From a virus: a stretch of 64,000 nt of DNA. The translations under genes and the position numbers were made by a program. Shown one piece after another: positions 16,197-45,390 of this stretch (the stretch's first letter is position 1; every line of letters begins with the position of its first letter). The notes below the pieces were generated by a model that saw only the letters and a program-made list of their open reading frames with translations, did not search any database and was not told the DNA's origin. The stretch lies in IMG/VR virus record IMGVR_UViG_3300045256_000567. The stretch is one strand, 5' to 3'.

Positions 16197-16212
16197 ATTC
16201 TAAAACAATTAT

Positions 16213-16409: not shown

Positions 16410-16410
16410 A

Positions 16411-20737: not shown

Positions 20738-20755
20738 ATGCTACCTAAAAAAATT

Positions 20756-22675: not shown

Positions 22676-24735
22676 TTCCTCCGCACCCCAATGTTGTACT
22701 TAGAGTAGAAATCTTTATTTATTATATTAGAATAAGAAATTCTGCAAACTTCTTTTTCTTTAGAAAAAGAATCCAGATCTTTGTACTGTATATATTGCAC
22801 ATCATTTAGTAAAGTATATAATAACTTTATTTCGTAAGAATTGCTTGAGCAGAATCCTGTTGTATCGTTTATTAAATTCTCACATAATTCGATATCATTG
22901 TCTGATGGTATAGGAAGAGTAAGGAATTTTATTTTTAAATAATTTGCTTCTACTGGATCAATACTTTCTACTGCTCTTAAACTCAAGCCTATTTTTGTAA
23001 AAGTGTTTAAATAATTTGATGCATTATTAAATGCTACTGAAGAAACCTCCTTAAAACATAGGTCTAAAGGCTTATTTTTACAATTAGTTTTAATTTCATT
23101 AATAAAATTAGTGTAATAATACCTATTTACACTATCTCCTAAAATATCCCCGTAAATATTGTTCAATATTTTTTCAACTATAGTTTTTTCCTGATAACGT
23201 GGTGCTTGTAAAAATAAATTACCGCCCGTTAAAGAAAATTTAGATAGGTAAGATATGTAGTTGTTGTAAGAATTAAAACCATTTTTAGAATATACGTATA
23301 ATGCCAATTTTCCTTGGTTAACAATATCTAAATATTCTGAATATGTAAAATATTGGGAGGGGTCAGAACACTTAGTAGGAATTTCGCTCAAACTGTTTGG
23401 AACAACATCATTATAGTAAGTCATGCATATAAAATTTTTATAAGTATTTTTATATAATTCAAATAATTCTGGGGTAAGGGAAAATCCCAAATATATATTA
23501 TTTACATTAAATTCATTGCTTAATATTTGCCAAATTTTTGAATAACTAATTTCTTCTCCAAGATCAAGTTTATTTAAATTATCTCCTAAGTATTGTTTTA
23601 GTCTGTTAATATCATTGTTAGATGATATGCTATCTGTTTCAAGAATTACATTAAATAAGTTGTTTTTCGCTAATCTTATGTTAATTATTGTTCCTGCCGG
23701 TTTAACGTCTTCAAGTTGCGACAAAAGCAAAGGTAAAAAGTTAGATATTGAACTAGAAGAAGTTATATATAAATCCAGTATTCCAGGATTATTTGTAGTG
23801 TATAATTGCGCTGAACTATTAGGAAGAAGTGTATATATTTTTGTTTGTATTGCTTGCAGAGTGCCTTTTGTTAAAGATCCTAAAAAGCTCCAATACCTTT
23901 GCCTATATGATTCATCGCTTTCCTCATCTATGCCTCCATTAATTTCAGAGCTATAGGCTAAAGTAAGCATCCCTCCTTCTACTTTTGCTATGGAATCAAT
24001 ATCTACAACAAGCTCGTTTGTAGGTAAGGAAGTATTTAATACATAATCAAAATTATTTTCTACTAAAAATTTAAAGTTTCCAGCATTTACAAAAGTATTA
24101 ACAACTCCACTACTAATATTTTTATTGCTTCCAGTATCAATAGAAATTAAAGGAAATACTAAATATTTGATATAAGAATTTGGATTTTGCTGTAATATAG
24201 ATATTGTATAGTTAGCTATCAATTCTGCTATTTTTTGATTTCCAGTGTCTGGATTTACTTCAAAAAATGATTCATCTGTTGCTTGTAAAAGTTTTATTGG
24301 AGGAAGTAATGCATAATCAAATATTCCATTAGTTGTAGATACTTTTATTGTAGAAGCTAAAGGTGGAGTATAAAGAACTCCAGAGTTCACGTCAAGTCTA
24401 CTAAATACTAACTTTGATAAAGAACTTGAAGTTATAGAATCAGATATATTAAAGCTTACAGGCATTAGGGTTACATATCCTAATGCTCTTGTTCCTTTTA
24501 TTCTTTCAATTTTAGATAATCCATAAATTAATTGATCTAAGTAAGATCCTGTAGCAGTATGCACATAACTATTATTTTTTATTTCATCTATAGATGAATA
24601 TACCTCTTCTAAAGCAGTTGAAACACTATAAAACATTGATTTTATAACGCTTCCATTTCTTAGAGCGTTAATTTTATTTTGTATAGTTAAAAATAAACTC
24701 TCTATAGAAGAAAGTATTTCAAATCTATCTGGCAC
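22672..24735 (-). CDS. Baseplate J-like wedge protein
   Basis: GSVIKSMF, TATGSYLDQL...IERIKGTRALG, GGIDEESDESYRQR, KGTLQAI and KPAGT motifs. Confidence 0.88.
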   Translation of the reverse strand: MPDRFEILSSIESLFLTIQNKINALRNGSVIKSMFYSVSTALEEVYSSIDEIKNNSYVHTATGSYLDQLIYGLSKIERIKGTRALGYVTLMPVSFNISDSITSSSLSKLVFSRLDVNSGVLYTPPLASTIKVSTTNGIFDYALLPPIKLLQATDESFFEVNPDTGNQKIAELIANYTISILQQNPNSYIKYLVFPLISIDTGSNKNISSGVVNTFVNAGNFKFLVENNFDYVLNTSLPTNELVVDIDSIAKVEGGMLTLAYSSEINGGIDEESDESYRQRYWSFLGSLTKGTLQAIQTKIYTLLPNSSAQLYTTNNPGILDLYITSSSSISNFLPLLLSQLEDVKPAGTIINIRLAKNNLFNVILETDSISSNNDINRLKQYLGDNLNKLDLGEEISYSKIWQILSNEFNVNNIYLGFSLTPELFELYKNTYKNFICMTYYNDVVPNSLSEIPTKCSDPSQYFTYSEYLDIVNQGKLALYVYSKNGFNSYNNYISYLSKFSLTGGNLFLQAPRYQEKTIVEKILNNIYGDILGDSVNRYYYTNFINEIKTNCKNKPLDLCFKEVSSVAFNNASNYLNTFTKIGLSLRAVESIDPVEANYLKIKFLTLPIPSDNDIELCENLINDTTGFCSSNSYEIKLLYTLLNDVQYIQYKDLDSFSKEKEVCRISYSNIINKDFYSKYNIGVRRK

Positions 24736-24746
24736 AAATAGATTAT

Positions 24747-24768
24747 AGCATAGCTTGCAGAAAACCTA
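24747..24768 (+). mobile_element. IS200/IS605 left-end scar forming the baseplate-J promoter (TGCTATAAT, 6 nt before GTG)
   Basis: TTAT|AGCATAGCTTGCAGAAAACCTA. Its last CTA is also the TAG stop codon of ORF 24766..25266. Confidence 0.75.
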
Positions 24769-25266
24769 ACTTTTGCAAATATTATAGGATCTATCTCCAG
24801 AGTCAAAAGAATTTACAGTTAAAGAATTAGAAAAAGTTCTACTTAAAGCATAAGCCTCTATTTCGTCAAATAAAAAATTAACTTTTATCACATACGGAAA
24901 ATTACTTAAATATTTTACAAAATTATCTATCGTATAACTTTTTATATAAAAATTTACTTCGTTATCTGTAATATTTTTTAAACTATATATAATTTTATTT
25001 TGATCAAAATTTAAAAAATATAATTTGTTTACTATTTCATTTTTTGCTGATAAAACATCTACAGATAAATTTTTAAATTTTAAAAATAAATACTCATTAC
25101 TAGAGTAATATTGATATGCAGAAGAGAAAAATGATATTTCAGTATTACCAGAATTCACGCTATATGAAGTAAATATTAAAAAATTTGAATAAGAAGTAGG
25201 AAGTTGTATATTCTGGTCTACAGAAAAATTTACAACTCTTCCTTGTGAGCTAGATATTGTAAACAT
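24766..25266 (-). CDS. Hypothetical protein
   Basis: 166-aa ORF in the operon. Confidence 0.65.
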   Translation of the reverse strand: MFTISSSQGRVVNFSVDQNIQLPTSYSNFLIFTSYSVNSGNTEISFFSSAYQYYSSNEYLFLKFKNLSVDVLSAKNEIVNKLYFLNFDQNKIIYSLKNITDNEVNFYIKSYTIDNFVKYLSNFPYVIKVNFLFDEIEAYALSRTFSNSLTVNSFDSGDRSYNICKS

Positions 25267-25271
25267 AAAAA

Positions 25272-25640
25272 TTATTTGTCATTTTTCTTTGTGACTTTTT
25301 TTGATTTTTTGGAGTCAGAATTGTTGTTATCTTTGCTATCTTCAGGAGAAGGTTCTATATTTTCAGATTTTACGTTTTCAGTATCTGTTTCTTGGTTATT
25401 ACTAGTATCACTTTGATTTGTGGTGTCTATTTTTTGAGTTTGTTCTTCTTCATTTATTACTTCGTATTGAGTAATAAATTTCATGCTTTTTAAGTTTTCT
25501 AAGAAATTAACTAAATCTTGTTCGGTTGCTGGGTCTGCTTCCAAATAAAGATCTTCATTTTCTTTGTAGACTTTGTATACCAGTCCTTTATAAAACATTC
25601 TTAGTTGAACGTAAGGATTTAACTTTACTTTCTTTCTCAT
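25272..25640 (-). CDS. Hypothetical protein with acidic/low-complexity tail
   Basis: 122 aa; TATAAT and GAGGG upstream. Confidence 0.7.
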   Translation of the reverse strand: MRKKVKLNPYVQLRMFYKGLVYKVYKENEDLYLEADPATEQDLVNFLENLKSMKFITQYEVINEEEQTQKIDTTNQSDTSNNQETDTENVKSENIEPSPEDSKDNNNSDSKKSKKVTKKNDK

Positions 25641-25662
25641 ATTTTCCCTCTTTTGTATTATA

Positions 25663-25842
25663 CTACATTTTCGATTTTTTTCTGTACTTTTTGTACTCTT
25701 CGTTCCAATCTTTTACACTGTACTCACTGTTTTCTGTTTTCTTTTGTAAGTAAAAACTTATTAAGTTCTGCACTTCCTTTAAATCTTTTTTATTTTGTAA
25801 AATTTCTAATTTTCTTGAATACCAACTTTTTAAAGATTCCAT
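25663..25842 (-). CDS. Small hypothetical protein (59 aa, not in ORF track)
   Basis: MESLKSWYSRKLEILQNKKDLKEVQNLISFYLQKKTENSEYSVKDWNEEYKKYRKKSKM*. AGGTG upstream; fills the operon gap exactly. Confidence 0.65.
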   Translation of the reverse strand: MESLKSWYSRKLEILQNKKDLKEVQNLISFYLQKKTENSEYSVKDWNEEYKKYRKKSKM

Positions 25843-25849
25843 ATCACAC

Positions 25850-27754
25850 CTAAAGAAGAGTATACAACTCTATTGAATAATTTGATGAATTTATAGCAGT
25901 TGAAGAAAACTGTACGGTATGGGTAGTAGAAGGAACTAGAGAAGTCACATAAGATATTATACTACTACCGATTTTTAATATTGCAAGTATTTTCACAGGT
26001 TCAGAAAATTCAATTGTTGAAATTAAAAGGTTTCCGGCAAGTCTAGTGTCATGTTGTATTAAAGATATAGCGTTTGATTCTTTAATTGCTTCTGTTTTGT
26101 AACTAGAAATTAATGAAAGATTGTAAAGTGTTATAGTAGAACGCAAAGATGGAAGTATTAATTTGTAACTTGTTGGTACATAAGTCAAGGAATCTAAAAC
26201 TGTACCATCAACCCCAAGGGTTAAATATTTTTGTAAGTCTTCTCCAAGAAAGAAAGATATAAAAATATTTTTATAAATATCATTTGTATATATGCGGATA
26301 TAATTTGGAGACAAACTATATATTGGATTATATGAATTAGATGTTACGTCTCCATTTATTGATACAGAACTTAGTGAATAGTAGTTAGAAATAAGAAAAT
26401 TATTAGCTTGTGATATTAAGCTATTTATCTGTGTTAAATACGAAGCATCAAAATTATTTTTATAAATATTTAGATAGGTTTTTATTAATGCAGCTTGTAA
26501 AGGATCAGAAATGTTAGAATATTTTGTATTTACGTCCCACCCTACTGCATTTTCATCAAAAAATACTCTTTCTATTTCTTTAATCCAAGGATTTATATTT
26601 TCATTTGAAATATCTAGAATATTTATGAAAAATAAGTTAGTGCCCAAGGAATATATAGAAGGAAGAGTAAAAGTATTTTGATTGTAAATAATAGAATCAG
26701 GAAGCAAAGAAGCATTAGTATTTGGTATAGGAAGTTTTGGATAAAAAACACCAGAAGAAAGAGAAAAAGTTTTTAAAAAAATTAATATATCACTATAAAT
26801 GTTATAAGAAATAGTTAATAAATAAGGAATTTTTGTTGCTGTATATATAGATAATAATATATCTAGTATACTTACTTCTGCGCTTATTGGCTCATATTGT
26901 AAATTATTTTCATTATAATAGTATTCTTTATAAAGTAATTTATTTGCTGCTTTAGGCAATGAATTATATGTAGAAAATTCAGTAAAAGTAGATTCATTTA
27001 AAGAAGAAAGTATATTTGTTGAAAATAAATAAGATAAAATAGAATATCCAGATAAATAATATTTGTTTGTATTTGGTAAAAATCTATATTGCGAAGGGAA
27101 TTTAAAGTCGGTTAAAATTTGCAACTTATTACTTCCTATGCCTCTCCCAAGATAGAATAAAGTAATGTTGTTAGAAACAATAGATGATATAGATTTATAG
27201 ATAGATGTTTGCCTATAATTAGGATTACTAAAATATAAACCGCTAAAAATTTCTCTAAATAAGTAAGTTTCTCCTACCACCTGGTTCAATGGATTATAAT
27301 AAGTAGCTGTATATCTTTGATCTAGTGGTATATATCCAAGTTTTAAATCTTCAGTAGAATAAATAAATTTACTGTTTGCAGTTAATGCTATATACGAAAC
27401 GGTTTGGTTTACAGATTGGTAAGACAATTCTAATCCATCTAAATTAGAGGGCAAAAAAGTTTCATATAATAATTGATCATTAGAATTATAAATTCTAATT
27501 GAATAATTATTGGAAACTTGAATAGAGTTTGGATTTTTTATTTTTATTACAAATGTTTGGTTTAAATTATTTGTATCATTTAAATTGCCGGAAAGTAATT
27601 CAAAATAAATTCCGTCAGACAACACGCTAGTGCACAATGAGTTGTTTATAGAATAGTTTTTATTTAAATAAAACTTATTATTTTTATTTGTTAAAATAAA
27701 GCACTCATCAGATCCATATGAGCTAAAGAAATTTATAGCTTTAACCAAAGACAT
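25850..27754 (-). CDS. Hypothetical structural protein
   Basis: 634-aa N/S/Y/I-rich ORF at the head of the minus-strand block. Confidence 0.65.
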   Translation of the reverse strand: MSLVKAINFFSSYGSDECFILTNKNNKFYLNKNYSINNSLCTSVLSDGIYFELLSGNLNDTNNLNQTFVIKIKNPNSIQVSNNYSIRIYNSNDQLLYETFLPSNLDGLELSYQSVNQTVSYIALTANSKFIYSTEDLKLGYIPLDQRYTATYYNPLNQVVGETYLFREIFSGLYFSNPNYRQTSIYKSISSIVSNNITLFYLGRGIGSNKLQILTDFKFPSQYRFLPNTNKYYLSGYSILSYLFSTNILSSLNESTFTEFSTYNSLPKAANKLLYKEYYYNENNLQYEPISAEVSILDILLSIYTATKIPYLLTISYNIYSDILIFLKTFSLSSGVFYPKLPIPNTNASLLPDSIIYNQNTFTLPSIYSLGTNLFFINILDISNENINPWIKEIERVFFDENAVGWDVNTKYSNISDPLQAALIKTYLNIYKNNFDASYLTQINSLISQANNFLISNYYSLSSVSINGDVTSNSYNPIYSLSPNYIRIYTNDIYKNIFISFFLGEDLQKYLTLGVDGTVLDSLTYVPTSYKLILPSLRSTITLYNLSLISSYKTEAIKESNAISLIQHDTRLAGNLLISTIEFSEPVKILAILKIGSSIISYVTSLVPSTTHTVQFSSTAINSSNYSIELYTLL

Positions 27755-27768
27755 AATTGTATTATATA

Positions 27769-28254
27769 ATGAAGAAGAGAAATATGGTAGACTTAATAGG
27801 AGTTTTATTATTAATTTACAATTTATTTACATTTGGTCAGCCAAATGATATTAAATATTCTTTTTCTATATCTTTAGATATTCAATATCAAACAGATATA
27901 TCAGCTAGCTTAGGATTAAAGGTTGATCCCGTTCTTATTTACGAAATAAATGATAAAAATAAACCATATTGCGGAATGTTTTTTTATAATGCAATTGTTT
28001 TAAATGATGCTTCCATGGGTAAATGTGAAGATACTCTATCTCATGAATTAAACCATTGGAAACAAAGGCAAGCAGTAGGGCCTTTTATGTTTTTAGGAAA
28101 TTATTTGCCTTGCAACAATAATCTTCCTCACGATATAGATGGAATTTGGTGTGCACATCCAAATTTCACTGATAGAAACATGCTACTTCCAAAAGGTTTA
28201 AATTACCCACTTTTTGAAATAAAGATACCACTTTTTTGGGATACATCTAAATAG
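27769..28254 (+). CDS. Small exported/membrane-anchored zincin metalloprotease-like protein
   Basis: Basic-then-hydrophobic N-terminus MKKRNMVDLIGVLLLIYNLF; DTLSHELNHWKQ (HExxH); ATG at 27769. Confidence 0.65.
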   Translation: MKKRNMVDLIGVLLLIYNLFTFGQPNDIKYSFSISLDIQYQTDISASLGLKVDPVLIYEINDKNKPYCGMFFYNAIVLNDASMGKCEDTLSHELNHWKQRQAVGPFMFLGNYLPCNNNLPHDIDGIWCAHPNFTDRNMLLPKGLNYPLFEIKIPLFWDTSK

Positions 28255-28259
28255 ATATT

Positions 28260-28447
28260 ATGGGAACATTCTACTCCAAAGACGGTCCAATACAAACTGA
28301 AAAAGACTACGATGTCGTGAAAAGGGTTCCAGAAGGGCAGGTAGTCTATAACTCTAAATTTCCTAACCTTGTTTTTTATCAAAACCAAGTACTTCCAATG
28401 AGAAATGGAGTAATTGTAAACTACCAAGATTCTGATTGGGTAATGGA
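28260..28447 (+). repeat. Left arm of a 188-bp inverted repeat (partner 37828..38015)
   Basis: Base-by-base identical except for one synonymous mismatch (28355 vs 37920). Confidence 0.95.
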
Positions 28448-31400
28448 AAATTATCAAAATTATTTAAGCAAATATAGTCAAAAGCAGCCTACTACACCAA
28501 TTAAACAAACCGAAGCTCCTTTATCAGAAGAAAATACTAGTAAAAAACTAATAGACCTTATTAGAGAAATAAATGCAATGCAGGACTTAGAAGATGTTAT
28601 ATCTCTAAATAATGAATTTTCTGATGCAGATTTAAAAAAATTAGAAGAAAAATATGGTATATATACTTCTTCTAAAGGAGAACTACTGATAAAAGAAAAC
28701 GCAAGTTTTGAACAAATTAAAAGCTTAGTCACCCTTTTACTTAGATATGAAGCTTATTTATTTACAGGAAACAAGGATATTTTTAAAAAAGATTCAGAAT
28801 TAGGACATTCTGATATATCCTTATTGGCGAAAAAAGAACTTAAAAAACTATTACATATTCCTATTCCTATTATTTATGAAAAATCAGGAAATACAAATGA
28901 AGCTATTAGTTATGCTATTAGCTCTATATATGATAAAAATATGGAATTTGATGAACTTGATATTGAATTAGCATCTATTATTTCAGAAAAAGGAAAAGAA
29001 TATTATAAATCTAAAAATAAACCATATTTTTCTATAAACCTAGAAAAAAATCAGCTTTCTATTGAAGCTGCTTCAAATTTAATGAAGTTTATACCATTTT
29101 ACTTTAAAGATTATTTAGGATTTGAAGGGGAAGATGATTTTATTGAAATAGAACAAATGATTAGTGCTATCCCTTCAGCAATATTTGGAAAAGACTTAAT
29201 TGATTTTTTATATAGCAAAAAACCAGAAATATCAAGATTACTTAAAAACTTTTTCTCCGACCAGAGTACAGGATTAATATATTCAACATGGGAATCTCTA
29301 AGAAAGTATGAATTTAGTAAATATGATAAAACTACTTTTTTGCTTAGTCTTTATGATTCTATGTTAGAGCAAATTGATAGAGAAATAAGAAAACTGTCTT
29401 TTATAAGTACAAATGCAGATGGAAAAAGCGATGCAATGTTTAATGCAGTTAAAGGAATTTTATCAGCATATTTATCAAACTCTGTTATGTATATAATGAA
29501 AAATCAAGATCTTCTTGATGACTTGAGATCAGTTAGACCAGACGAAGGATATAGCATTTTATCAGATAAGTTGATAGAATTTGAAAAAAATAACAATTTC
29601 CTATTCTTATCACGAGCACTCTCGCCTAGAAATCAAAGTACATTAGAAGCTAAAATTCTATTAGGATTTTTTTCAAATGAAAATTTAGATAACCAAAAAA
29701 TTAAAGATTTTCTACAAAAAGATATAAAAGATATAAAAGCTAAAAAAGATATAAAAAACTATGATCTATATTTACAAGATATAGAAAAAATATTTACCGA
29801 TATATTAAATCCAAGCTACAGGTTAAGAGATGAAATACAACAAAGAATAGAAGATTCTTTTGGAAAGGCGCACCCATATGTTAAAAATAAAGAAATTATT
29901 AGCGTACTTCCTTTTATTTTTTCAAATTTAAATAATCCTGTAATTTCTTCTGGCATAGACAAAGATTTTTTGAAGGGAGTTATGAACATTATAACTGAGG
30001 AAATAAGTAAGACACTACAAAATCCTTCTTTTAGTGATGACCTTAAAGAATATTTTGAATCTTTATTAGAAGAGACTTCAAACTATTTTAAAGATGAAGA
30101 TATAAAAAGCATGTCAAAGTTTCTGGTAAGTATATTACTTTCTACTAACGAAACAAATACTCCGGAAAATACAGAAAAAGTTAACGAATTGTTTAAAAAA
30201 ATGATGCAAAAACTTAAAAATTCAACATCAACTACAGAATTTGTCGAAAATTCTGAATTCATTTCTGAAACAGTAAAAATGTTTGAAGATTTATTTCATC
30301 CTCAATACAACGCTTACATAGGTTTTATTGAAATGAAACAAAGCTTGAATATATTGCATCTAAAAAAAGAGTTATATCAAGAATTGGTTGATTTAGAAGA
30401 ATCAAACTATACCTTGGCTTCAGCATTACAAGAATCACTGCTACAAAGAAAAGATAGTTTAATCTATCCTACAGGATATGAAAATTTCCAAAGCGATCAA
30501 GATAAAAATATAGCCGCAAAAAAAGAAAGAAAAGAATTTATAGATAATGCTAAACTTCGTTCAGTAGAAGTACTGAAGGAGGCAATAGATAAATTAAAAA
30601 ATAAAGATTTTACTACAACAGAAAGGTACGTTGGTGAGGAATTAGAAAAAAGAAAAAAAGAGCTGATAGGACAACTGTCTTATATTGCAAATTTTATAAA
30701 TTCAGAATATAAAACAGAACCTTTATATAAACTTAATGAAGCATTTTATAATGCACTCGATATTATAAAAAGTATGTATCAATTTTCATCTGATAAAAAA
30801 ACTAGAGATACTTTAATAAGCATTGGTGCTGAAGTTTTTTATTCCAAGTTTTCTATTTCGGATATATTGATGGAAAATAAAAACAATACAAACTTTACTA
30901 TATCTGTTTCAAGTGGTTCTCCAAGCACACATATTTCTGGGCATATATTTCTTATGAAATTAGTAAAAGATTTAGATAGATACAAAGAAATAGCAGTTAG
31001 TTTTACGAGTAAATATTCAGCGATACCATTACTGACCATATCTAAATATAATCAAAAAAGGACTCCTATAATTAATATTTCCAGAGATTCAGAAAACAAA
31101 CTATATATAGATTTTGCGCACTCCATATTTTATCCTTATTATGGAACGTCAAGCTCTAGCGATCAATTTGCAGTTAGTGAATCGGTAATAAAACCAAATA
31201 TTATTTCTTCTCAAAATATTCCTAGTAACTTATCGAATAGAATTTCTTCAACAAATTTTTATGATAATATACCAAGACCGCTACTTTCATCAACAAAAAC
31301 ACAGGAAATTTCTTTAGATTCTTTAAAAGAACTTTTGTTTTCAGGCCCAAAAACATTAGAAAGAATGTCATACGCAGAATCAATGGTTTGTAATTTTCCT

Positions 31401-33155
31401 CTACTTGTTTCTAATGAGAAATTTATGGGGCCAATAAGACCGGTTATTGATAATATATATAATTTTAAAGATTTAAGAGATAAAGGAACAAGAGCAAGGC
31501 CAATCGTTGTTATTAAAAGATCTTTATCTAAGTATGCTAGGGAATCTATAAAAAAATTAAAACTTTCCACATCTCCTTTAGAATTAGAAGAACATAAAAG
31601 AAGTTTAAACGAATACTTAGGAGCGAGCACACTCGATAATTTTAATGTAAATTCTTTTGATCATTTAATTGATGATGAGAGGGGAATGTTTAGAGAAACG
31701 TTCGGAGAAATAACAGGTTCCGAATACAAAAGAAATAAAGAAAGTTCGTTTACCAGTAACTATACAATACAGGTAACAACAAAATCTAAAGAAGGAATTT
31801 CAAAAAATTTTACTATTGTTCCTTCTTATATAAGTATCAATTCTTTCAAAAGAATTTCTTCTAAATTTTTGAATAATCTATTAAATCAATATATAGAGAA
31901 AAAAACAAAATCTCTGCAACAAAACCTAAATGAGGAAGAAAGAAAATTAATAGAAGTAGATGCAAAGGAAATTGAAGGAAAGATAAATGATTTTACAGTT
32001 TTCTTGGAAATGGTTAATGTAGATGATTACAAATTAACAACTGGTATGTTAAATGCACTATTTGATTCGTTAGGAAATTTAGGCAGAGCAGAAAAAGATT
32101 TTTCTAATTTTCTTGCCGAACAACTACTTTTTGACTCGTCTTTAGGATTAGCTCCAGCATTTGTATATGATGAAGATAGTATAGTATTTGCTCCTCATAC
32201 ATACAATTCTAACAAAATAGAAGACACTTATCACGCCCACATGCATCCGTTGTACTTGTTAGGAAACATCTCACCTAGATTCATGTATAAAATTGGTAAA
32301 TTTACGAAAAAATTTATAGATAAAACAACTGATGAAAAATTTTCCAGTATTTTAAAAAATTTATCAAAAGGAGGTGTTTTGAAGTTAGTACCAGGATTTT
32401 TTAGAGCTTATCATTTTCAAGGAAATGTACTTCATGATATATTAGATGCATTTAAAAGAATTCCCCTAGCTAACGCTTTACAGGAAAGTAACGAATCAGA
32501 TCTTGATGAATTAGAAAGACAAGTAGATTTAGGTTTCTTTGATAAAGAAAAAGAAGAATTTATAAAACTGGGCGGAGGTTACACATTTGGGTTTGACCCA
32601 GGTAAAAAAGATACTCCTACCTATCAAAGACGTATTTTATATGAGTTTATAAAAGATTTTAAAACTACGCTATTTCATGAAATTGGGCATCAATTAGATT
32701 TTGAGGAAGACGAACAGACAAGAAATTCTGTATATAAAAAATTTAATGACACGCTAAAAGAGGTACTTAAAGAACTGAAAAGTTCTATAGCTTCAGATAG
32801 TAGTATAAGAGAAGATTTAAAGGGGTCTTTATATAGGTATATAGATGAATATACTCAAAAATTGCTGACATCTACTATGAACAGAGCTGATTATAAGGTA
32901 TATGAATCTTTTTTATCCTTTATCTACACTACAGATAAGCCTGTTAGAGAAGAATTATATAAAATATTTGAAAGAAAACAGTCAGAGGGGTTGTTATTAA
33001 ACACATACGCTCTTTTTAACTCTGTTGAGATCCCATCAACCGTACTGGAATACGCCTCTATTTTGGGGGAAGAGGAATTTAAGAAAAGATTTCCAAAATA
33101 CATAGAAGTGCTAGACTACCTATTAGAAATTGCGAAAAATGGAGGTTATCTATAG
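28260..33155 (+). CDS. Giant protein (1631 aa) with C-terminal zincin metallopeptidase domain; probable virion-internal protein
   Basis: TTLFHEIGHQLD (HExxH at 32676-32690) plus downstream NTYALFNSVE third-ligand motif; paralog of 33150..38015. Confidence 0.75.
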   Translation: MGTFYSKDGPIQTEKDYDVVKRVPEGQVVYNSKFPNLVFYQNQVLPMRNGVIVNYQDSDWVMENYQNYLSKYSQKQPTTPIKQTEAPLSEENTSKKLIDLIREINAMQDLEDVISLNNEFSDADLKKLEEKYGIYTSSKGELLIKENASFEQIKSLVTLLLRYEAYLFTGNKDIFKKDSELGHSDISLLAKKELKKLLHIPIPIIYEKSGNTNEAISYAISSIYDKNMEFDELDIELASIISEKGKEYYKSKNKPYFSINLEKNQLSIEAASNLMKFIPFYFKDYLGFEGEDDFIEIEQMISAIPSAIFGKDLIDFLYSKKPEISRLLKNFFSDQSTGLIYSTWESLRKYEFSKYDKTTFLLSLYDSMLEQIDREIRKLSFISTNADGKSDAMFNAVKGILSAYLSNSVMYIMKNQDLLDDLRSVRPDEGYSILSDKLIEFEKNNNFLFLSRALSPRNQSTLEAKILLGFFSNENLDNQKIKDFLQKDIKDIKAKKDIKNYDLYLQDIEKIFTDILNPSYRLRDEIQQRIEDSFGKAHPYVKNKEIISVLPFIFSNLNNPVISSGIDKDFLKGVMNIITEEISKTLQNPSFSDDLKEYFESLLEETSNYFKDEDIKSMSKFLVSILLSTNETNTPENTEKVNELFKKMMQKLKNSTSTTEFVENSEFISETVKMFEDLFHPQYNAYIGFIEMKQSLNILHLKKELYQELVDLEESNYTLASALQESLLQRKDSLIYPTGYENFQSDQDKNIAAKKERKEFIDNAKLRSVEVLKEAIDKLKNKDFTTTERYVGEELEKRKKELIGQLSYIANFINSEYKTEPLYKLNEAFYNALDIIKSMYQFSSDKKTRDTLISIGAEVFYSKFSISDILMENKNNTNFTISVSSGSPSTHISGHIFLMKLVKDLDRYKEIAVSFTSKYSAIPLLTISKYNQKRTPIINISRDSENKLYIDFAHSIFYPYYGTSSSSDQFAVSESVIKPNIISSQNIPSNLSNRISSTNFYDNIPRPLLSSTKTQEISLDSLKELLFSGPKTLERMSYAESMVCNFPLLVSNEKFMGPIRPVIDNIYNFKDLRDKGTRARPIVVIKRSLSKYARESIKKLKLSTSPLELEEHKRSLNEYLGASTLDNFNVNSFDHLIDDERGMFRETFGEITGSEYKRNKESSFTSNYTIQVTTKSKEGISKNFTIVPSYISINSFKRISSKFLNNLLNQYIEKKTKSLQQNLNEEERKLIEVDAKEIEGKINDFTVFLEMVNVDDYKLTTGMLNALFDSLGNLGRAEKDFSNFLAEQLLFDSSLGLAPAFVYDEDSIVFAPHTYNSNKIEDTYHAHMHPLYLLGNISPRFMYKIGKFTKKFIDKTTDEKFSSILKNLSKGGVLKLVPGFFRAYHFQGNVLHDILDAFKRIPLANALQESNESDLDELERQVDLGFFDKEKEEFIKLGGGYTFGFDPGKKDTPTYQRRILYEFIKDFKTTLFHEIGHQLDFEEDEQTRNSVYKKFNDTLKEVLKELKSSIASDSSIREDLKGSLYRYIDEYTQKLLTSTMNRADYKVYESFLSFIYTTDKPVREELYKIFERKQSEGLLLNTYALFNSVEIPSTVLEYASILGEEEFKKRFPKYIEVLDYLLEIAKNGGYL

Positions 33156-36100
33156 ATATCCGCGTGATTTTGCTACACTAAGTAAATAGTCTAAAACTGT
33201 TTCATATTCTTTAAATCTTTTTCTAAATTCTTCTTCTCCTAAAACCGAAGCAAACTCCAGTACAGTTGAAGGTATTTCATTACCATTAAAAAGAGCATAA
33301 GTATTTAATAATACACCGCTGTCTACATATTTAGATAGAATTTTAATAAATTCATTTTTCTCTTTAACATCTACAGATAAATCAGAAAAGAATTCTCTAA
33401 ATTTTTCATATATGCTGTAATCGATAATATTAATATCTCCATTAATTACTCGGTTTATATATGCATCTACAAGATCGATAATTGTGTGTTTTTTTGATTT
33501 ACCTAAACTGCTTAATTCAATATCCTCTTTAAGTTTTCCTATATATTTTTTAATAGTTGGTGATATAGATTTGTAAAATTTTTTCCTTTCGTTATATCCC
33601 GCCAAATAATCTAATTTATGACCAAGTTCGTGAAATAAAATAGTTTTTAAACTTCCTATATATTCGTTAATATTTTCATCCAAAATATTTTTAGGATAGT
33701 CATTTGATTGGTCTTCTGTATTTGATATTTCAGTTTCTGTGCTTAATCTCTGTTTTTTAGAAATTTCACCATATTCCAATTCTTTTTCTAGCAAATCAAA
33801 TTCTGTACTTACACCTAATAAATTTGTAGATATACCAAACTTTCTTAATGAATCTAGGACATCATGAAATATATGCTCACCTCTTCTATAAAAAGATCTG
33901 AAAATGCCTGGAACCATTTTTATTGAACCTTCTTTTGAAACATTTTCTAATATTTTAGAAAATTTTTCATCAGTTGTTTTTTCTACTATCTTTTTTGAAA
34001 GTCTTGAAATTTTATACATAAATCTAGAAGATATGTTTCCTAGGGTGTATAAAGGAAACATCTCAAAATGAAATGTACTTTCTAAATTATTAGATTTTGG
34101 AATATATGGGGAAAAGCTTATACCATTTTCATCATAAAAAAATACAGGACTTATCCCTAAAGATCCTTCAAGTATTAGCTGTTCAGCGAGAAAGTTACCA
34201 AAATCTTGATAATCTTCCCCTGTATATACTAGCTTATCCAATATACTTTCTAACATTCCAATTGATGAAATATAATTACTAGTTTCAATTTCTCTTAGAA
34301 AATTTTTAAATTTTATTATTTTTCCCTTTATTTGTTCTAACTCATCTGATCCTAATCCTAGTTTTTCTTTTTTATTTGCATATTCCTCAAATAACTTATT
34401 TATATATTTATAAGAAATTCTTTTAAAAGAATCAATTCTTATAAAAGACGGTATAATAATAAGTTTTTTCTCTTCTCCACGTTTAGATCTTGTTGTTATT
34501 TCTATTTGGTAATTATTTGAAGTTGTATCCGTATAAGTTTTTTTATACTCGGCTTTAATTATATCTCCAAATGTTTCTTTAAACGAACCATTTTGATCGT
34601 CAAAAAAATGATCAAACGCATCAACAGAAAAATCTTTTAATATAGATGATCCAATATTTTCATCTAATTCTCTTTTCCATTCTTGTGTTCTACCACTATG
34701 TGAAGAAATTAATAAATATAGGTCAATGTTATTACGCATTGACATGATAATACTATTTATTGTATTGATTGCGTCCACGTTATTACGATCTTTATAATGA
34801 TACAAATTATCCATAAACGGCCTTATTGGACCTAAAAACTTTTCATTTGAAACAATTAATGGAAAACTGTAGGCCATTGATTCAGCATAAGATAAATCAT
34901 CTAATGTTTTTGGAACTCCCCAAAAAATATCTTTTAATGAACCTAAAGAAATTCTCTGATGCTTTGCTCCTGCAATTTGTGGTCTTGGTATTTTGTTGTT
35001 TTCAACTAAAATATTTACTCTACCATAAAAATTAGGATTTATAGCACTAAACATAGGGCTAACTCTTTCAATTACTTTTTCCGACAACGAAAAATTATTA
35101 TCTTTTCCTGGAGATGTATATGGATAATATACAGTACTCGCAAAATCTATATATAAATTATTATCATGTTGCAATGAAATTTTTAGTATTGGTATTCTTT
35201 TTTGGTTATATTTAGAAATAGTAAGTATTGTAAATGATCTATCAGGAGCATTATTTGTAAAATTAAATGCAAACTCTCTATATTTTTCTAAATCTTTTAC
35301 AAGTTTCATAAAAAATATATGCCCAGAAATATGGTGACTTGGAGAACCACTAGAAATAGAAACCGTAAAATTAGAGTTGCTATTAGATTCCATTAATATA
35401 TCTGATAAAAGAAATTTTGCTGATAAAATTTTTCCACCAATTCTTATAAGATTTCTTCTTAATTTAAAACCAGTAGATAAGTTGCTTAAATTATTTACGG
35501 CATCAAGCATTCTATAAAAAGCTTCATTAAATTTATAAATTGGTTCTGTTTTGTATTCCGAATCTATGAATTTAACCATATAATCCATGTATTTTGCTAT
35601 TTCTTTTATTCCTTGATTATACATTCCTAAAAACAATTCATCTTCTTCTGTAAGATCACCATCTTTTAATTGCTCAATGGCCTCTTTTAATGCATTTATT
35701 GCTTTTAATTTATTTTCATTTATAAAATTTATGCGTTCCAATCTTAAAGTTTTATTTTTACTATGAAGATCAGAAAAATTTCCATAATTATAATCGTAAA
35801 GAAAGCTATCTATTCTTTGCAATAAAGATTCTTGTAAAGAAGCCGCCAACGCATAATCATATTTTTCAAAATCTACTAATTGTTCATATAATTCTTTTTT
35901 TAAATTCAAAATATTTAAATTTTGTTTCATTAAAATATACCCTATATGTGCATCATATTGGGGGTGATATAAATCCTCGAACATCTTTACTGTATCAGAT
36001 ATAAAATTAGCGACTATTGTAAATTTTTTTAAATCTTCTTTTGATTCTTCCAATTTTTTTAACATTTTCTTAAAAATTTCGTTTATTTTATTTGAATTTG

Positions 36101-38015
36101 ATAATGCATTTTTATCATTAGTAGACATTATTATGTCTATTAAATCTTTTGACATTTCTTTTATTTCAGGATCATCAAAATCTTTCGATTCTGTTTCCAA
36201 TAAAGATTCTAGCTGCTGTAAAAATTTGTCTGTAGATATTTCATCAAGATTTATTTCTGGTAGAAAAATATTTCTAGAAGAAGTTGTTGCACCTTTTAGT
36301 TTATCAAAATGATCTATAATCATGGGCATAACTTTTCTTAAAAATTCTTTATCCACTCCAGAATAAATAGAACGATTGTTTAAATGCGATAAAACAAAAT
36401 GAATTGCAAAAAAGATTGCTGGATTACTAGCATATGTATAAGAAGATAATTCTTCAGTTATTTTTTTGTGCAAACCGAGAGAATAATCTCCTCTAGACAA
36501 TGATAGCAACATAGTATTTAAATCTTCTAGATATTTTCCATAATTCCCCTCTCCTAATTTTCTTTTCATGGTATTTATTTCTTCTGATCTTAAAATATCT
36601 TTAATTTTTTTGTCATCAATATGTTCTCCGTTTAAAATTCCCAATAAAACCTTAGCTTGCATTACATTTTCTTCTGAAGGAGAAAAAGATTCTAAAAAAA
36701 GATCGGAGTCGTTTTCTGAATGAAATTTTTTTAATTTATTTAAAATAATTGAAGCTCCGTCATTTAATGAACTTGATTTTAATTCTTCAAAAATATTTAT
36801 GTCTTCTAATAAAGACAATATAAATCTAGAAAAATAAATAGATAAAACTCCTTTAACAGCACTAAACATTGGATCATTTGTTTCATCTGCGTATTCATCT
36901 ATAAATGAGAGTTTCGATATTTTTTTATCTAGTTCAATTGATATATTTTTATATAATGTATTTATAAGTTCTACTTCATCATAATTATTGACTATATACT
37001 CTTCTAAAGCGTATTGAATAGCAAAATGAAGTTTATTGGATGAAATAAAATCTTCAATAAATTTTTCTATTTCTCTCCTCTCTGAGAGCAATAATTTTAT
37101 TAAATCGTTGCCAAAAATCGCAGCAGGTAAAGCATGTAATATTGGCTCCATATCATATATGTAAGATTTTTCTCCACCCAAAGAATTTTTAAAATAAAAT
37201 GTTACAAATTTCATTAGGTTTGAGGCATCTTCTATAGAATAATTATGCCTATTTAAGTCAATAAAAAAATATGGTGTGCCATGTAAAGAGTAATATTCAT
37301 TACCCTTTTTAAAGATAAGTTCTGACAATTGTATATCCATTTCATCAAATTCAATATTTTTATCATACATACCAATTAAAAGTCCGCCGATCAATTTTGA
37401 AACATCCATGTTACCAAAATTAATTAATTTCAGAATTGCTTTTGCCGCCATTCTCCCTAATTCTTCTTTTGAAAGTGAATCTTCACCTATAAAAGTTCCT
37501 TTTTGATTTGTGTATATTTCATGTTTAATTAATAATGTGAAAAGGTTTTTTAATTGCTGAAAATTTACGTCATCTTTTAAAATAAGTTCTTTTTTATCAG
37601 AAATATAAAATCCGTATTTTTTTTCTAAATTTTTTATATCTGGATCAGAAAAACTAGTATGTAAAATTATTCTATCCTCTACATCCATTGACCCATCTAT
37701 TTCTTGTATGGTCTCTATTAATTTTTCTTTAATTTTTTCTGTTGTTTCAGAAGTTTGAGATTCATCAATTATTTCTTGTTGGGCAGTTTGTTGTGGATGA
37801 TATTTATTTATAAAGTTTTGGTAAGACTCCATTACCCAATCAGAATCTTGGTAGTTTACAATTACTCCATTTCTCATTGGAAGTACTTGGTTTTGATAAA
37901 AAACAAGGTTAGGAAATTTCGAGTTATAGACTACCTGCCCTTCTGGAACCCTTTTCACGACATCGTAGTCTTTTTCAGTTTGTATTGGACCGTCTTTGGA
38001 GTAGAATGTTCCCAT
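33150..38015 (-). CDS. Giant protein (1621 aa) with C-terminal zincin metallopeptidase domain; paralog of 28260..33155
   Basis: TILFHELGHKLD (33618-33632), NTYALFNGNE; collinear similarity over the full length. Confidence 0.75.
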   Translation of the reverse strand: MGTFYSKDGPIQTEKDYDVVKRVPEGQVVYNSKFPNLVFYQNQVLPMRNGVIVNYQDSDWVMESYQNFINKYHPQQTAQQEIIDESQTSETTEKIKEKLIETIQEIDGSMDVEDRIILHTSFSDPDIKNLEKKYGFYISDKKELILKDDVNFQQLKNLFTLLIKHEIYTNQKGTFIGEDSLSKEELGRMAAKAILKLINFGNMDVSKLIGGLLIGMYDKNIEFDEMDIQLSELIFKKGNEYYSLHGTPYFFIDLNRHNYSIEDASNLMKFVTFYFKNSLGGEKSYIYDMEPILHALPAAIFGNDLIKLLLSERREIEKFIEDFISSNKLHFAIQYALEEYIVNNYDEVELINTLYKNISIELDKKISKLSFIDEYADETNDPMFSAVKGVLSIYFSRFILSLLEDINIFEELKSSSLNDGASIILNKLKKFHSENDSDLFLESFSPSEENVMQAKVLLGILNGEHIDDKKIKDILRSEEINTMKRKLGEGNYGKYLEDLNTMLLSLSRGDYSLGLHKKITEELSSYTYASNPAIFFAIHFVLSHLNNRSIYSGVDKEFLRKVMPMIIDHFDKLKGATTSSRNIFLPEINLDEISTDKFLQQLESLLETESKDFDDPEIKEMSKDLIDIIMSTNDKNALSNSNKINEIFKKMLKKLEESKEDLKKFTIVANFISDTVKMFEDLYHPQYDAHIGYILMKQNLNILNLKKELYEQLVDFEKYDYALAASLQESLLQRIDSFLYDYNYGNFSDLHSKNKTLRLERINFINENKLKAINALKEAIEQLKDGDLTEEDELFLGMYNQGIKEIAKYMDYMVKFIDSEYKTEPIYKFNEAFYRMLDAVNNLSNLSTGFKLRRNLIRIGGKILSAKFLLSDILMESNSNSNFTVSISSGSPSHHISGHIFFMKLVKDLEKYREFAFNFTNNAPDRSFTILTISKYNQKRIPILKISLQHDNNLYIDFASTVYYPYTSPGKDNNFSLSEKVIERVSPMFSAINPNFYGRVNILVENNKIPRPQIAGAKHQRISLGSLKDIFWGVPKTLDDLSYAESMAYSFPLIVSNEKFLGPIRPFMDNLYHYKDRNNVDAINTINSIIMSMRNNIDLYLLISSHSGRTQEWKRELDENIGSSILKDFSVDAFDHFFDDQNGSFKETFGDIIKAEYKKTYTDTTSNNYQIEITTRSKRGEEKKLIIIPSFIRIDSFKRISYKYINKLFEEYANKKEKLGLGSDELEQIKGKIIKFKNFLREIETSNYISSIGMLESILDKLVYTGEDYQDFGNFLAEQLILEGSLGISPVFFYDENGISFSPYIPKSNNLESTFHFEMFPLYTLGNISSRFMYKISRLSKKIVEKTTDEKFSKILENVSKEGSIKMVPGIFRSFYRRGEHIFHDVLDSLRKFGISTNLLGVSTEFDLLEKELEYGEISKKQRLSTETEISNTEDQSNDYPKNILDENINEYIGSLKTILFHELGHKLDYLAGYNERKKFYKSISPTIKKYIGKLKEDIELSSLGKSKKHTIIDLVDAYINRVINGDINIIDYSIYEKFREFFSDLSVDVKEKNEFIKILSKYVDSGVLLNTYALFNGNEIPSTVLEFASVLGEEEFRKRFKEYETVLDYLLSVAKSRGYL
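37828..38015 (-). repeat. Right arm of the 188-bp inverted repeat
   Basis: Reverse complement of 28260..28447. Confidence 0.95.
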
Positions 38016-38123
38016 AGTTTAAAACCAAAAAATATATTTATTATATTATACAATTTTTTGCATCGACAAACAAATTAATATATTTGTGTTTAATTTTTCT
38101 TTTTTTGTGATACAATCTACTTG

Positions 38124-38618
38124 ATGGAAACGTTAACTTTTTATATAAAAAATTACAAAGATGAAACACTAAAAAACATAAACCCAGATTTAGTTCTGGA
38201 AAAAAACATAGAAGCTCTTAGGGCTTCTGGTGAACTGTGGAATAAAGAAGAATTAGAGCAAATGATAAGAGAAAAATACAAAAACGAAAAACAAAATATT
38301 CTATCTTCTACAGATAGCTATTTGAATGATTTAATTGGATTTACTTATACATATGAAGAAGGAAGAGAAGATTTAAATATTGAAAAGAATCTGTGTAGTC
38401 CAGAAAAATTGTATTTAGGGTTAAAAGATAAAAATACTATATATCTAGATTGTAATAGAATTTTAAGAACTAATGATCCACTTGTTCTAGAAAGTAAGAT
38501 AAAAGATAGCGCAAGAAAACTTGCAGAAAATTATATTGTTAATTTAATAAACAATATATTTGGAGAAATATATAGTAAAAACGCAGTAATTAATTCAGAA
38601 TTTTATGCGAAAATATAA
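38124..38618 (+). CDS. Hypothetical protein (leaderless)
   Basis: TGATACAAT (38108-38116) lies 7 nt before the ATG. Confidence 0.7.
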   Translation: METLTFYIKNYKDETLKNINPDLVLEKNIEALRASGELWNKEELEQMIREKYKNEKQNILSSTDSYLNDLIGFTYTYEEGREDLNIEKNLCSPEKLYLGLKDKNTIYLDCNRILRTNDPLVLESKIKDSARKLAENYIVNLINNIFGEIYSKNAVINSEFYAKI

Positions 38619-38868
38619 AATTATAGGAGAATTTGATTCATATATTGATGACGATTATTTACTAGTTTCGTCATTAGAAAACGATTGTTCTTCTCATAAA
38701 GTATATAGAATTTCTCAAGGCATAAATTTCTTTTTAGAAAAAGATATTTTTTGCGGCGCAAAAGTAAATTTATCAAAACTAGATGACGAAAAACTTTCTT
38801 ATTTTGTATTAGTAGACGAAGATGGATACGAAATAGAGTTAAGTATGTTTCTTTCGGACTTTCTTTAA
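38605..38868 (+). CDS. Hypothetical protein
   Basis: 87 aa, overlapping the upstream stop codon. Confidence 0.65.
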   Translation: MRKYKIIGEFDSYIDDDYLLVSSLENDCSSHKVYRISQGINFFLEKDIFCGAKVNLSKLDDEKLSYFVLVDEDGYEIELSMFLSDFL

Positions 38869-38905
38869 AAATTGGATTTTGAGAAATTTTTTGTATAATA
38901 CAATC

Positions 38906-39211
38906 ATGGAAACCATATCAAACGCAGAAAGATATAAATTTTTAATAATGGTACAAAATTTATTCTATCCACAGATGGATGTTGGATTTTACGAAGAAAT
39001 ATCAAAACGTTTACCAAAAGCGGAAAAAGATAAAGATAATTCTGCTTTAAAAGAATTTTTAGCTGGAGTAGCACTTATTGGAGAATATATAGCAAAAGGC
39101 GATATTGAAGAAAAATGTAAAGCAGGACTGAATTCAGTAAATATACTTAAAAAGTACGGAGTTCAGTCGAATCGTTACTTTGACGATGTAATTTCTTTTT
39201 GCAAGAAATAA
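38906..39211 (+). CDS. Hypothetical protein (leaderless; start revised to ATG 38906)
   Basis: TATAAT (38894-38899) lies 6 nt before the ATG of METISNAER. Confidence 0.7.
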   Translation: METISNAERYKFLIMVQNLFYPQMDVGFYEEISKRLPKAEKDKDNSALKEFLAGVALIGEYIAKGDIEEKCKAGLNSVNILKKYGVQSNRYFDDVISFCKK

Positions 39212-39244
39212 CACTACTAAAAATTTTTTCTTTTGGGGCATTTA

Positions 39245-42200
39245 ATGGGTGTTCGATACTTACAAAACGGACAAACAGAACCAATACTAGATCGTAATGG
39301 AAATCCTGTAGATTATGATGTAGTTGTTTATGTTCCTGAAGGTTATGTATTAGTAAATAAAGATAATTCTAACAATTTTTACAAATCTGGAACTAGAGTA
39401 AATCCAAAATCAGCTCCTAAAGGTGTAAAAGTAAATTATCCTGATGCTAAGTGGGAGCTAGTAAGCGAAGCATCATTTTCTTCTGTATTACAACAAGCGC
39501 AACAGCAACAACAGCCTCAACAACAACAGCAACAAGAACTACTATCTTCAAGAGAAAAAGAGCTTGATGAACTAGTAGAAGACCCAAATCTCAAAAAAAC
39601 CTTAGAGTCTTATTTAAGTAATGAAGAGATTTCTAAAATCCTGAATAAAAAGCTTTCAGAAATACAAGATGCGTATCAGAAAATTTCTGAAAAATCTTCA
39701 GAAGAAGAAATAAATGATTTCTATGAACAGGTAAAAAGTATTACAAATGATATGCTGTATTTAGTAGCAAGCTCACTGGAGCTACAGGCTGAAGGAAAAA
39801 ATGAACGTCAATTATATCCAATTAGTAATGAAGAATACTTAGAAAAATTTAAAGATTCTATAACTAAATTATCGCTTTTACTTTTAGGAAAACAATTAAC
39901 TGAAATAGATTTAAAAGATCTTAAAGATATAATCTCTTCTACTTTTGAAGATATAAACATACAGGATTTTTTATCATCTAGAAATTCCCGTATTCTAATA
40001 AAGAAAGATTTTGATCCCAAGTTTGAAGATTTTGTAGACAAACTTATTTCTTCTAGTATAACTCAAGAAGAAAAAGAACAAGAATTAAATAGATTAGAAT
40101 TAGAAGTAGCAGGACTGCTAACAAATGTAACTGATTATTTAACAGAACACGATCTAAATGAGCTTGGAACTGCTATATCTAAACAAATAAATGAATTTAG
40201 AGAAATGTTAAAGGAAGGTCAGCTTTCTGATCAAGATGTAGAAAAAGTAAAAGAAAAAAATCTGATAGAACTTTTGAGAAATAAGAAAGATGTTTCACAG
40301 CTTACTGAAGGAGAATTAAAAGAACTAATAGAATCTGTACCTGAAAAAGAATATACAGAGATAGAAGAAGTAAAAGAAATTACATCTGAAGAGGAGCTAA
40401 AAGATGAAGAAGCATATACAAGAGGATTAGGAGTTTTCTTTGACCGTTCTTTAGAAGATGTAGAAAAATACATTGACCACATAGAAGGAACCTTTTTATC
40501 TCTAAAAGCGATAGACTCTTTCACCAAACAAGACCTATTAGATATGTATATAGGTCAATTGGGTGGTATGGAGTTTAGTGGTGCTGTAAAAATGCTTAAT
40601 TTTGTTTATGCACTCATGGAGCTTGACAAAAAATTTTCTGGAATGAGTAACGTACAGAAATTCATGGAATTGAAAAAAGACCCAACTTTGTTTAAAGAAA
40701 TGCTAGTAGGCGCGTGTGTATCGAAAAAAATTTCTTCATTTCATAAAAAATCCAGAATAGACAGTAGTTCTACTAATGTAGGTTCTCCAAATAAAGATGT
40801 AATTACAAAAGCAACTAGTGAATGTGAACAGAAGTTGGATCCTGTAGCCAACGCGGTCATTGATTATATGCGAGAATACGAAACTTCTTATATATATGGA
40901 ATTTTGGATATTACAGATAAAGTGCATCAATCAATGATAAAAACTATTTTTAGAGAAGAAATAAAAAATAAAGACGATCCTTTAATAAATCTAAAAGCAA
41001 GAAACATTGCTGCAAGAAATATTATTAATAGAGTACAAGAAATAAAAAGATTCAAAGGAGTAAAAGAAGAAGAAGCAAAAGTAAAGGCGGAACTTGAAGG
41101 GCTAGAAAAAGATTTATCTGATGAAAATACGGATGCAGAATCACAAGCTCTTTCTGAAGAAATACTAGACGAAAAGGTAAAAATTATACAAAAAATTTTT
41201 GGACTTAAAGACAAAACAATACATGCTTTAAGGCAAAAATTTGGTTTATTTAAAACAGAAAACGAAAAACTTTTTGGTCATATTCTTTTAAATATACCTC
41301 TATATGCTGTACCTGAAAATTTAGATGAGTTACGAAATAAACTTTCAGAAGAAGAATTTAGTGAAATACTAGAAAATTCACCAACTGCACAATCTCTGTC
41401 ATTAACCTTAAGCGCGTTTTCTTCTGATTCTGCTAATGTAAATAATTTTACAAACTTGACACCTAATAGAGACTTTAATATTTTACTTTCTAACTATATA
41501 GAAAGATTTATAGTGTCTTTAGCACAACGAAGATATAATGGAGAGTTTATAAAAGAAGATGAAGTAGAAAATCTGTTTCTTGATTTACAAACTGAAACAC
41601 AAACATCTATAAGAGATTCATTAGAAATGATTGTAGAATTTTCTGCTAATACTGATTTTATCAATTTAGATGAAGAACAAGTATATAAAAAGATACTTGA
41701 AATGTTTTTACCAAAAATAAAAACTGCTTTGATTAACCTTGGGAAAAGTGAAAATAGGTATGGAAATCACGGATATGAATATTTATACTTTATAAATTAC
41801 GATAACCCAAAAGATAACTTACCAGAAAAAGAATTTATTCCAAGCGAAGATAGTTATAAAGGTTTGGTAAGAGATCTATCTTATATAGCGGTTTTTAGTA
41901 CTATGTTAAAAACCTTTGAGTTGTTTTACAAAAAGAAACTTTCTTTGCCTGATGGTAGAACTGGAATTATTAGCCTTATGTCTAACATACAAGAAAATAT
42001 ACCAAATGCTTTAAGCTCCATAGAGCCTAATAATGAAAATGCAGGTAGAGATGTAATCTATTATTATGATAACAATGATGGAAGATACAATTTTGTTTTT
42101 GATTTGTTCTTTCCATTTATACACCCTAACAATCAAAGATCGTTTGAAGGAGAATATATAGGCAGTATTAAAGGTTTTGTTAGTCAATTACATTTATTTG

Positions 42201-45061: not shown

Positions 45062-45390
45062 CTCTTTTTGTTTTTGTCCATAACTCTAAAAAACTCATAA
45101 ACAATAGGATCACTAAAATCTTCTTCAGAAAATTTTACTTTTTCAGAATTTAAATAATCAACTATACTGTAAGCTTCTTCTGGAGAGAATCTTAACATTA
45201 GTAGGGTGTCTATAAGATCTTCTTCTTTTCCCTCTAAAAAATTTAAATCTTTTAGCATTAGGGCGATTACTTTAAGTCCCCTATCTAGTCTATTTTTGTC
45301 TTTTTCTACTTCATTTCTGATAGAAACAATTATTGGAGATAAAAAAGACAATATCAAGTGCTCTTCTGGAGATATGCGAGAATTTTCCAT
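45058..45390 (-). CDS. Hypothetical protein
   Basis: 110 aa, 5 nt downstream of the helicase stop codon. Confidence 0.7.
   Translation of the reverse strand: MENSRISPEEHLILSFLSPIIVSIRNEVEKDKNRLDRGLKVIALMLKDLNFLEGKEEDLIDTLLMLRFSPEEAYSIVDYLNSEKVKFSEEDFSDPIVYEFFRVMDKNKKS

Follow-up and report, generated by a model that had tools for sequence, protein, structure and literature searches.

Two giant open reading frames (ORFs), here called A and B, converge in the stretch of viral DNA analysed here, a 64-kb window from IMG/VR virus record IMGVR_UViG_3300045256_000567, and their 5' ends form an almost perfect inverted repeat. The record represents a phage with a genome of 29% G+C and a recorded size of 153 kb, and has the Thermus myophages phiYS40 and TMA among its relatives. 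The two ORFs align end to end at 44% amino acid identity and overlap by 6 nucleotides (nt) at their 3' ends. Both match phrog_28821 (E 2e-27 for A and 1e-25 for B), and tblastn also links their family to TMA and phiYS40. Each carries the module MGTFYS..DYDVVKRVPEG at residue 1 and a C-terminal HEXXH ... E[VI]PST block, the combination that defines the phiYS40/TMA_075 giant-protein family.

The convergent pair and its inverted repeat

The pair and its repeat comprise the following elements:

28260-33155, plus strand: ORF A, 1631 aa, with N-terminal module, Q-rich linker, long helical body and C-terminal HEIGH
32676-32690, plus strand: HEIGH motif of ORF A (residues 1473-1477), a HEXXH near the C-terminus
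33150-38015, minus strand: ORF B, 1621 aa, paralog of A
33618-33632, minus strand: HELGH motif of ORF B (residues 1462-1466), a HEXXH near the C-terminus
28259-28447, plus strand: left arm, the T before the ATG plus the first 188 nt (codons 1-63) of ORF A
37828-38016, minus strand: right arm, the T before the ATG plus the first 188 nt (codons 1-63) of ORF B
33147-33158: perfect 12-nt palindrome TATCTATAGATA at the 6-nt gene overlap, the axis of a 9.76-kb zero-spacer, now diverged palindrome

An earlier reading of this DNA from its letters alone (hereafter the sequence-only reading) had described convergent paralogs of 1631 and 1621 aa with diverged bodies, whose first 188 nt match except for one synonymous mismatch. 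Our analysis bears out both statements. A repeat finder and direct alignment place the sole mismatch of the arms at coding position 96, where codon 32 is TCT in A and TCG in B, both encoding serine. The identical runs on either side measure 95 and 92 nt, while no run elsewhere in the pair exceeds 23 nt. From coding position 189 on mismatches are dense, identity falling abruptly to 60% of nucleotides across the rest of the pair, and the flanks upstream of the arms are unrelated. The same reading had placed the end of identity at the Q-rich linker; the end is indeed abrupt, but it lies at codon 63, about 10 codons ahead of the linker, where conservation across the whole family drops too.

The repeat is real. 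A second Joint Genome Institute (JGI) contig (L002, 68.9 kb) is 100% identical over 16,297 bases, the single arm mismatch included, in the same orientation, and Logan contigs assembled at k=31 from two other sequencing runs are also 100% identical to the window. Sample JGI 3300045107 and the runs behind the Logan contigs SRR35364766 and SRR35386017 contain the phage. One of these (L019) ends at 28288 and another (L010) starts at 37987, in each case k-1 = 30 nt inside the outer border of an arm, exactly where a de Bruijn graph breaks at a true repeat. Logan contigs of k=31 cannot link across the arms, and the orientation is known from the two long JGI contigs. The arms exceed typical k-mers, so that an assembler could have picked the orientation of the interior arbitrarily, and a collapsed or chimeric repeat might also be suspected. 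Against this stand the base-for-base agreement of the two JGI contigs over 16.3 kb and the positions of the Logan breaks; in addition, diverged copies are not homogenised by de Bruijn assembly. An assembly artefact, which the sequence-only reading had named as a possible refutation, is thus very unlikely.

Probable homogenisation of the arms and possible inversion of the interior

Synonymous divergence between the paralogs, a comparison already proposed in the sequence-only reading, collapses within the arms. Codons 1-63 of A and B hold 2 synonymous differences in 37.7 synonymous sites, a proportion (pS) of 0.053, and the nonsynonymous proportion (pN) is 0. The remaining 1525 aligned codons, which make up the body, give a pS of 0.554 and a pN of 0.354 (arms versus body, P=5e-11). 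The same codons vary freely among orthologs: between A and the nearest relative (L003), 53 of 63 residues are kept and 23 of those 53 conserved codons differ synonymously, the A/B arm and the orthologous stretch of L003 being 78-79% identical in nucleotides, while TMA and a metagenomic Thermus-type phage (L004) differ synonymously at 14 of 62 codons. Such variation indicates that the arm nucleotides are free to drift, with no constraint at the nucleotide level. Combined with the low pS between A and B, it leaves recent recombination as the only reading for the identity of the arms, in line with the second option of the sequence-only reading, namely that gene conversion keeps the leader identical.

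Selection on the nucleotides themselves, if they formed an RNA element, held a binding site or overlapped an antisense gene, would be the competing cause of identity. Each arm is crossed by an antisense ORF (28203-28457, minus strand, and 37755-38078, plus strand), and third-position G+C is about twice as high in the arms (0.33-0.37) as in the gene bodies (0.15-0.17), the orthologous stretch of L003 standing at 0.22. However, the antisense frame carries stops in L003, phiYS40 and the related locus L017, and a conserved antisense gene was rejected. An RNA element was rejected as well, the arms folding with a z-score of +0.43 and 130 of 200 shuffles folding at least as well. With the 23 synonymous changes in L003 added, comparison of the sequences largely refutes selection at the nucleotide level, an explanation that we find hardly credible. 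The raised third-position G+C may reflect GC-biased conversion or codon selection at the 5' end.

We propose, with a probability of roughly 0.7, that the pair is an old fold-back duplication and that gene conversion homogenised its only recombinable segment. The starting point would have been a single giant gene of the phiYS40/TMA_075 family, duplicated in an inverted, probably fold-back, manner after the split from L003. The gene bodies would then have diverged to saturation, and the first 63 codons, under extreme purifying selection, would have stayed the sole stretch alike enough to serve homologous recombination. Gene conversion, possibly associated with crossover, would have copied one arm onto the other in one recent event or a few; on the outside its tract ends where homology ends, at ATG-1, and on the inside where protein conservation collapses. 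The longest run in the bodies is at or below the typical minimal homology for recombination, which suggests that the bodies are no longer recombinable.

The geometry of the locus and its comparison with L003 are consistent with this origin. A and B both end in Gly-Tyr-Leu-stop, and their stops overlap in CTATAG, in which the CTA (Leu) of each gene is the TAG stop of the other; a diverged palindrome that spans 28259-38016 with zero spacer agrees with a fold-back inverted duplication. In their bodies A and B share 42% amino acid identity, against 30% and 28% with the single L003 homolog, so the duplication would postdate the split from the L003 lineage. By position ORF B corresponds to the single L003 copy, and judging from gene order it appears to retain its ancestral neighbour: in both phages a small gene (165R in the window, a 168-aa gene in L003) diverges from the giant gene. 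ORF A has the higher bit score to L003 (601, against 483 for B); we considered a past swap of bodies on this ground and set it aside, since A and B are sisters and the difference is uninformative.

Several points weigh against this history. The conversion tract extends as far as homology itself, up to ATG-1, and in a simple double-strand-break conversion model tracts that reach the homology end abort (PMC5485169). Such a tract would fit better with resolution at the border, perhaps by a crossover and hence an inversion, or with a template switch. The very sharp inner border is matched more easily with one event, or with a fixed end, than with many random tracts. Lastly, the orientation comes from assembled contigs, and the interior may be flipping actively.

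What a flip would do depends on the sequences outside the arms, where the following features lie:

27757-28254, plus strand: 165L, small 165-aa gene (phrog_19616) with HELNH at 28042-28056; its stop is 5 nt before the ATG of A
27741-27770: promoter-like site TTAACC-18-TATAAT of the 165L-A operon, a sequence motif
38016-38120: divergent intergenic region between B and 165R, with a minus-strand promoter-like TTGTCG-18-TATAAT with TG
38047-38040, minus strand: TGTATAAT, promoter-like, about 30 nt upstream of ORF B
38121-38618, plus strand: 165R (phrog_38083), ortholog of the 168-aa gene of L003

The sequence-only reading had interpreted the locus as a 9.4-kb invertible effector switch, the right copy having a promoter of its own and the left copy sitting 5 nt behind a small zincin gene. 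The spacing, the small gene and the right promoter-like site are all present, but the left operon has a promoter-like site too. Each arm thus comes with its own ATG and with unrelated promoter-like sequence upstream, rather than with the single promoter and constant 5' part of invertible segments, and a flip would alter neither protein and turn nothing on or off. Nor is there an invertase in view, as the same reading had observed: none of the window's 47 ORFs of 100 aa or more matches the Resolvase, Recombinase or integrase families. No hix/gix-like site is found in the arms, where the best hix match reaches 15/24, against a maximum of 17/24 in the window, and no dyad-symmetric crossover site stands out there, the best 12-2-12 dyad scoring 8/12. 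With no recombinase among the window ORFs, no such site and both proteins complete either way, the programmed switch is unsupported.

A site-specific segment of the Mu G, P1 C or Hin type could still be served by an invertase encoded elsewhere in the genome, since the search covered the 64-kb window and 89 kb of the genome lie outside it. The geometry recalls the P1 C segment, with its 0.6-kb inverted repeats in 5' coding regions, and the inner border of identity is sharp. We nevertheless hold this to be very improbable given the results on recombinases and sites above, and because the duplicated constant part and start codon make both genes expressible in either state and leave no logic of alternative expression. 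TMA does encode a 196-aa serine recombinase (within L016, TMA 112650-114672), but it adjoins a gene annotated as transposase, an IS607-like pair with no link to the giant genes.

Passive isomerisation requires no such enzyme. Homologous recombination through the 188-bp arms would flip the 9.4-kb interior and leave a mixed phage population, in which the bodies swap between the 165L operon and the TGTATAAT promoter with a change in the dose or timing of the paralogs. A near-perfect inverted repeat of this length should suffice for homologous recombination, both ORFs would survive the inversion because the arms are identical in protein, and identity up to the homology border suggests border resolution, which is compatible with crossovers. 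The region is also inversion-prone over evolution: at least two inversions are needed to relate its gene order to that of L003 (helicase-to-protease region, 25850-45390 in the window), and that order also departs from the Hel-076-075-protease arrangement that is canonical in TMA, L004 and L017. Yet these evolutionary breakpoints do not coincide with the arms, the promoter-like sites upstream of both genes leave perhaps little to switch, and the two long JGI contigs, each reading through the left and the right arm in the same orientation, speak against a balanced mixture. On balance we judge passive isomerisation unlikely. It would be distinctly unlikely that the arms serve as a recombinase-free 'context-swap' device, in which the phage's homologous recombination flips the interior at an appreciable rate. 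Virions of a single lineage would then vary in the ratio of the two giant, fast-diverging cargo paralogs as a bet-hedging of injected effectors, and selection would keep the address identical for the sake of flipping, a proposal that we view with the same doubt. If flipping did take place, it would constitute a switch without a dedicated recombinase.

The N-terminal module and the surrounding genes

The module encoded by the arms is, in our view, a more promising lead than the inverted repeat. It has the consensus MG[TVI]xY...DYDVVK.VPEG...NG..V...W and occurs three times in the window, the third time in another giant gene:

28260-28478: N-terminal module of ORF A
37797-38015: N-terminal module of ORF B
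39245-39470: N-terminal module of gene C, 36% identical in amino acids to that of A/B
39245-45061, plus strand: gene C, the third giant gene, about 1938 aa, without HEXXH; a diverged copy of the module, then a poly-Q linker

A profile of the module matched 27 proteins among 1.84 billion representatives. In 23 of the 27 the match starts at residue 1, in phage proteins of up to 2.0 thousand residues (most of them 1.3-2.0 thousand; a few are short and probably truncated), and the other 4 are weak, internal matches in unrelated or repetitive proteins. The weak matches P0021, P0025 and P0026 were discarded as spurious or of low complexity. The bodies behind the module are of the HEXXH type in TMA_075, A, B, P0003 and P0018, and of a non-HEXXH type in P0024, P0029, P0031 and gene C. 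The module is therefore common to two unrelated kinds of giant protein encoded beside head genes (loci L003, L004, L005 and L017), and it is under extreme purifying selection across the family.

Structure prediction gives a beta-rich domain, with a block-mean predicted local distance difference test score (pLDDT) of 79-87 over residues 1-70, and behind it a disordered linker rich in Q or in acidic residues. A BFVD fold search with the N-terminal model found only its own family, and the rows listed in the PDB fold search were dominated by the helical linker part. In TMA, L004 and L017 the gene order is conserved as helicase, small gene, 076-type gene, 075-type gene, small gene, head protease and major capsid protein. 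This synteny with head genes suggests that the giant proteins are head-associated cargo and that the module is their shared address, a candidate signal for loading giant proteins into the head.

The sequence-only reading had called A and B zincins. The HEXXH motif is present in both bodies, and in the family alignment of its region H102, E103, H106 and E219 are invariant, the last a glutamate about 113 residues downstream, a long spacing. Beyond the motif, the label finds sub-threshold profile matches only (DUF4344 7.7e-4, Peptidase_M3 0.0055, MPTase-PolyVal 0.026), a Pfam search of the giant ORFs giving no match at E<=0.01, and one weak lead came from a language model. The model of the C-terminal domain is all-helical, with a pLDDT of 67. 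Searched with Foldseek it gave no match and no convincing solved zincin, and its VIA-align scores, Z 4.8 for a putative metal-dependent hydrolase and Z 4.5 for the lethal-factor catalytic centre, are both within noise. Motif and synteny together would make A and B putative giant internal metalloproteases.

As to the smaller genes, 165L has a hydrophobic N-terminus and no Pfam family match, and no similarity to 165R, the gene of equal length beside B, could be detected. A 634-aa gene on the minus strand and 165L on the plus strand start only 2-14 nt apart (27754-27770), so that the promoter of each must sit within the coding sequence of the other. The 636-aa homolog of this gene in L003 is preceded by 87- and 168-aa genes in one operon; the different neighbours point to an inversion breakpoint at 27754-27770. 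The region also differs from its counterpart in the Thermus-type phages (L001, L004 and L017): gene C lies the other way round, together with the small genes upstream of it, and a baseplate block (14936-27754) separates the giant genes from the head protease. Searches of IMG/VR and GTDB genomes yielded no close relatives of the phage, a phage DNA search was empty, and a metagenome scan for relatives returned only a Thermus-type locus. Two Logan contigs from two runs, L012 (1-115) and L015 (1-136), both stop about 7.7 kb to the left of where the window begins, directly upstream of a gene that is itself followed by a ribonucleotide reductase gene; the break would be accounted for by a repeat at this point.

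Comparison with known systems

Inversion of the Gin, Cin and Hin type requires an invertase, short dyad sites and a single expressed 5' part. The present locus resembles the Mu G, P1 C and Salmonella Hin systems in that alternative large genes, there virion-associated and here probably so, carry inverted repeats at the 5' ends of their coding regions, and in that a flip would re-pair 5' contexts with 3' bodies. It differs from them in two respects. No invertase gene (in the 64-kb window) or hix/gix/cix-like site was found, and the constant part, the start codon and the promoter are duplicated, both genes being complete in both states.

For the module, the closest likeness is with phage T4, whose internal proteins carry N-terminal capsid-targeting sequences. 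In both cases a short N-terminal element is found on otherwise unrelated proteins encoded beside head genes, and a comparable targeting role would account for the extreme conservation of the module. The T4 element is a peptide of about 10 residues, whereas the module is predicted to be a folded beta domain of about 70 residues. Its presence on two unrelated kinds of giant protein makes the module a candidate tag for loading very large proteins into capsids.

The homogenisation itself finds its nearest counterpart in the tufA/tufB genes of Salmonella. According to PMC5485169, which cites Hughes and colleagues, these inverted paralogs undergo concerted evolution by RecA-dependent gene conversion, sometimes linked to inversion; conversion there is processive and blocked by heterology (PMC5485169). 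Both systems comprise two inverse paralogs per genome, and the phage pair would share with the bacterial one non-reciprocal homogenisation, a tract stopped by heterology and inversion of the interval as a possible by-product. The scale is different: in the phage pair homogenisation is confined to 188 nt out of about 4.9 kb, the rest having diverged beyond recombination, and the tuf copies are 762 kb apart, whereas the phage genes abut tail to tail with their arms 9.4 kb apart.

Inverted duplications whose arms are kept identical by intramolecular conversion are also reported for the palindromes of the Y chromosome (PMC3403216), and the same arm-to-arm conversion for inverted gene pairs of C. 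elegans (PMC1803023). Their arms are described as identical along the full length; the phage palindrome has decayed except for its outermost 188 bp. The locus would offer a natural example of a phage paralog pair that decays everywhere but in the segment that purifying selection keeps recombinable, and the short perfect inverted repeat left behind can mislead assemblers and mimic a programmed switch. Set beside these systems, it is a new example of a known process, the partial concerted evolution of inverted paralogs.

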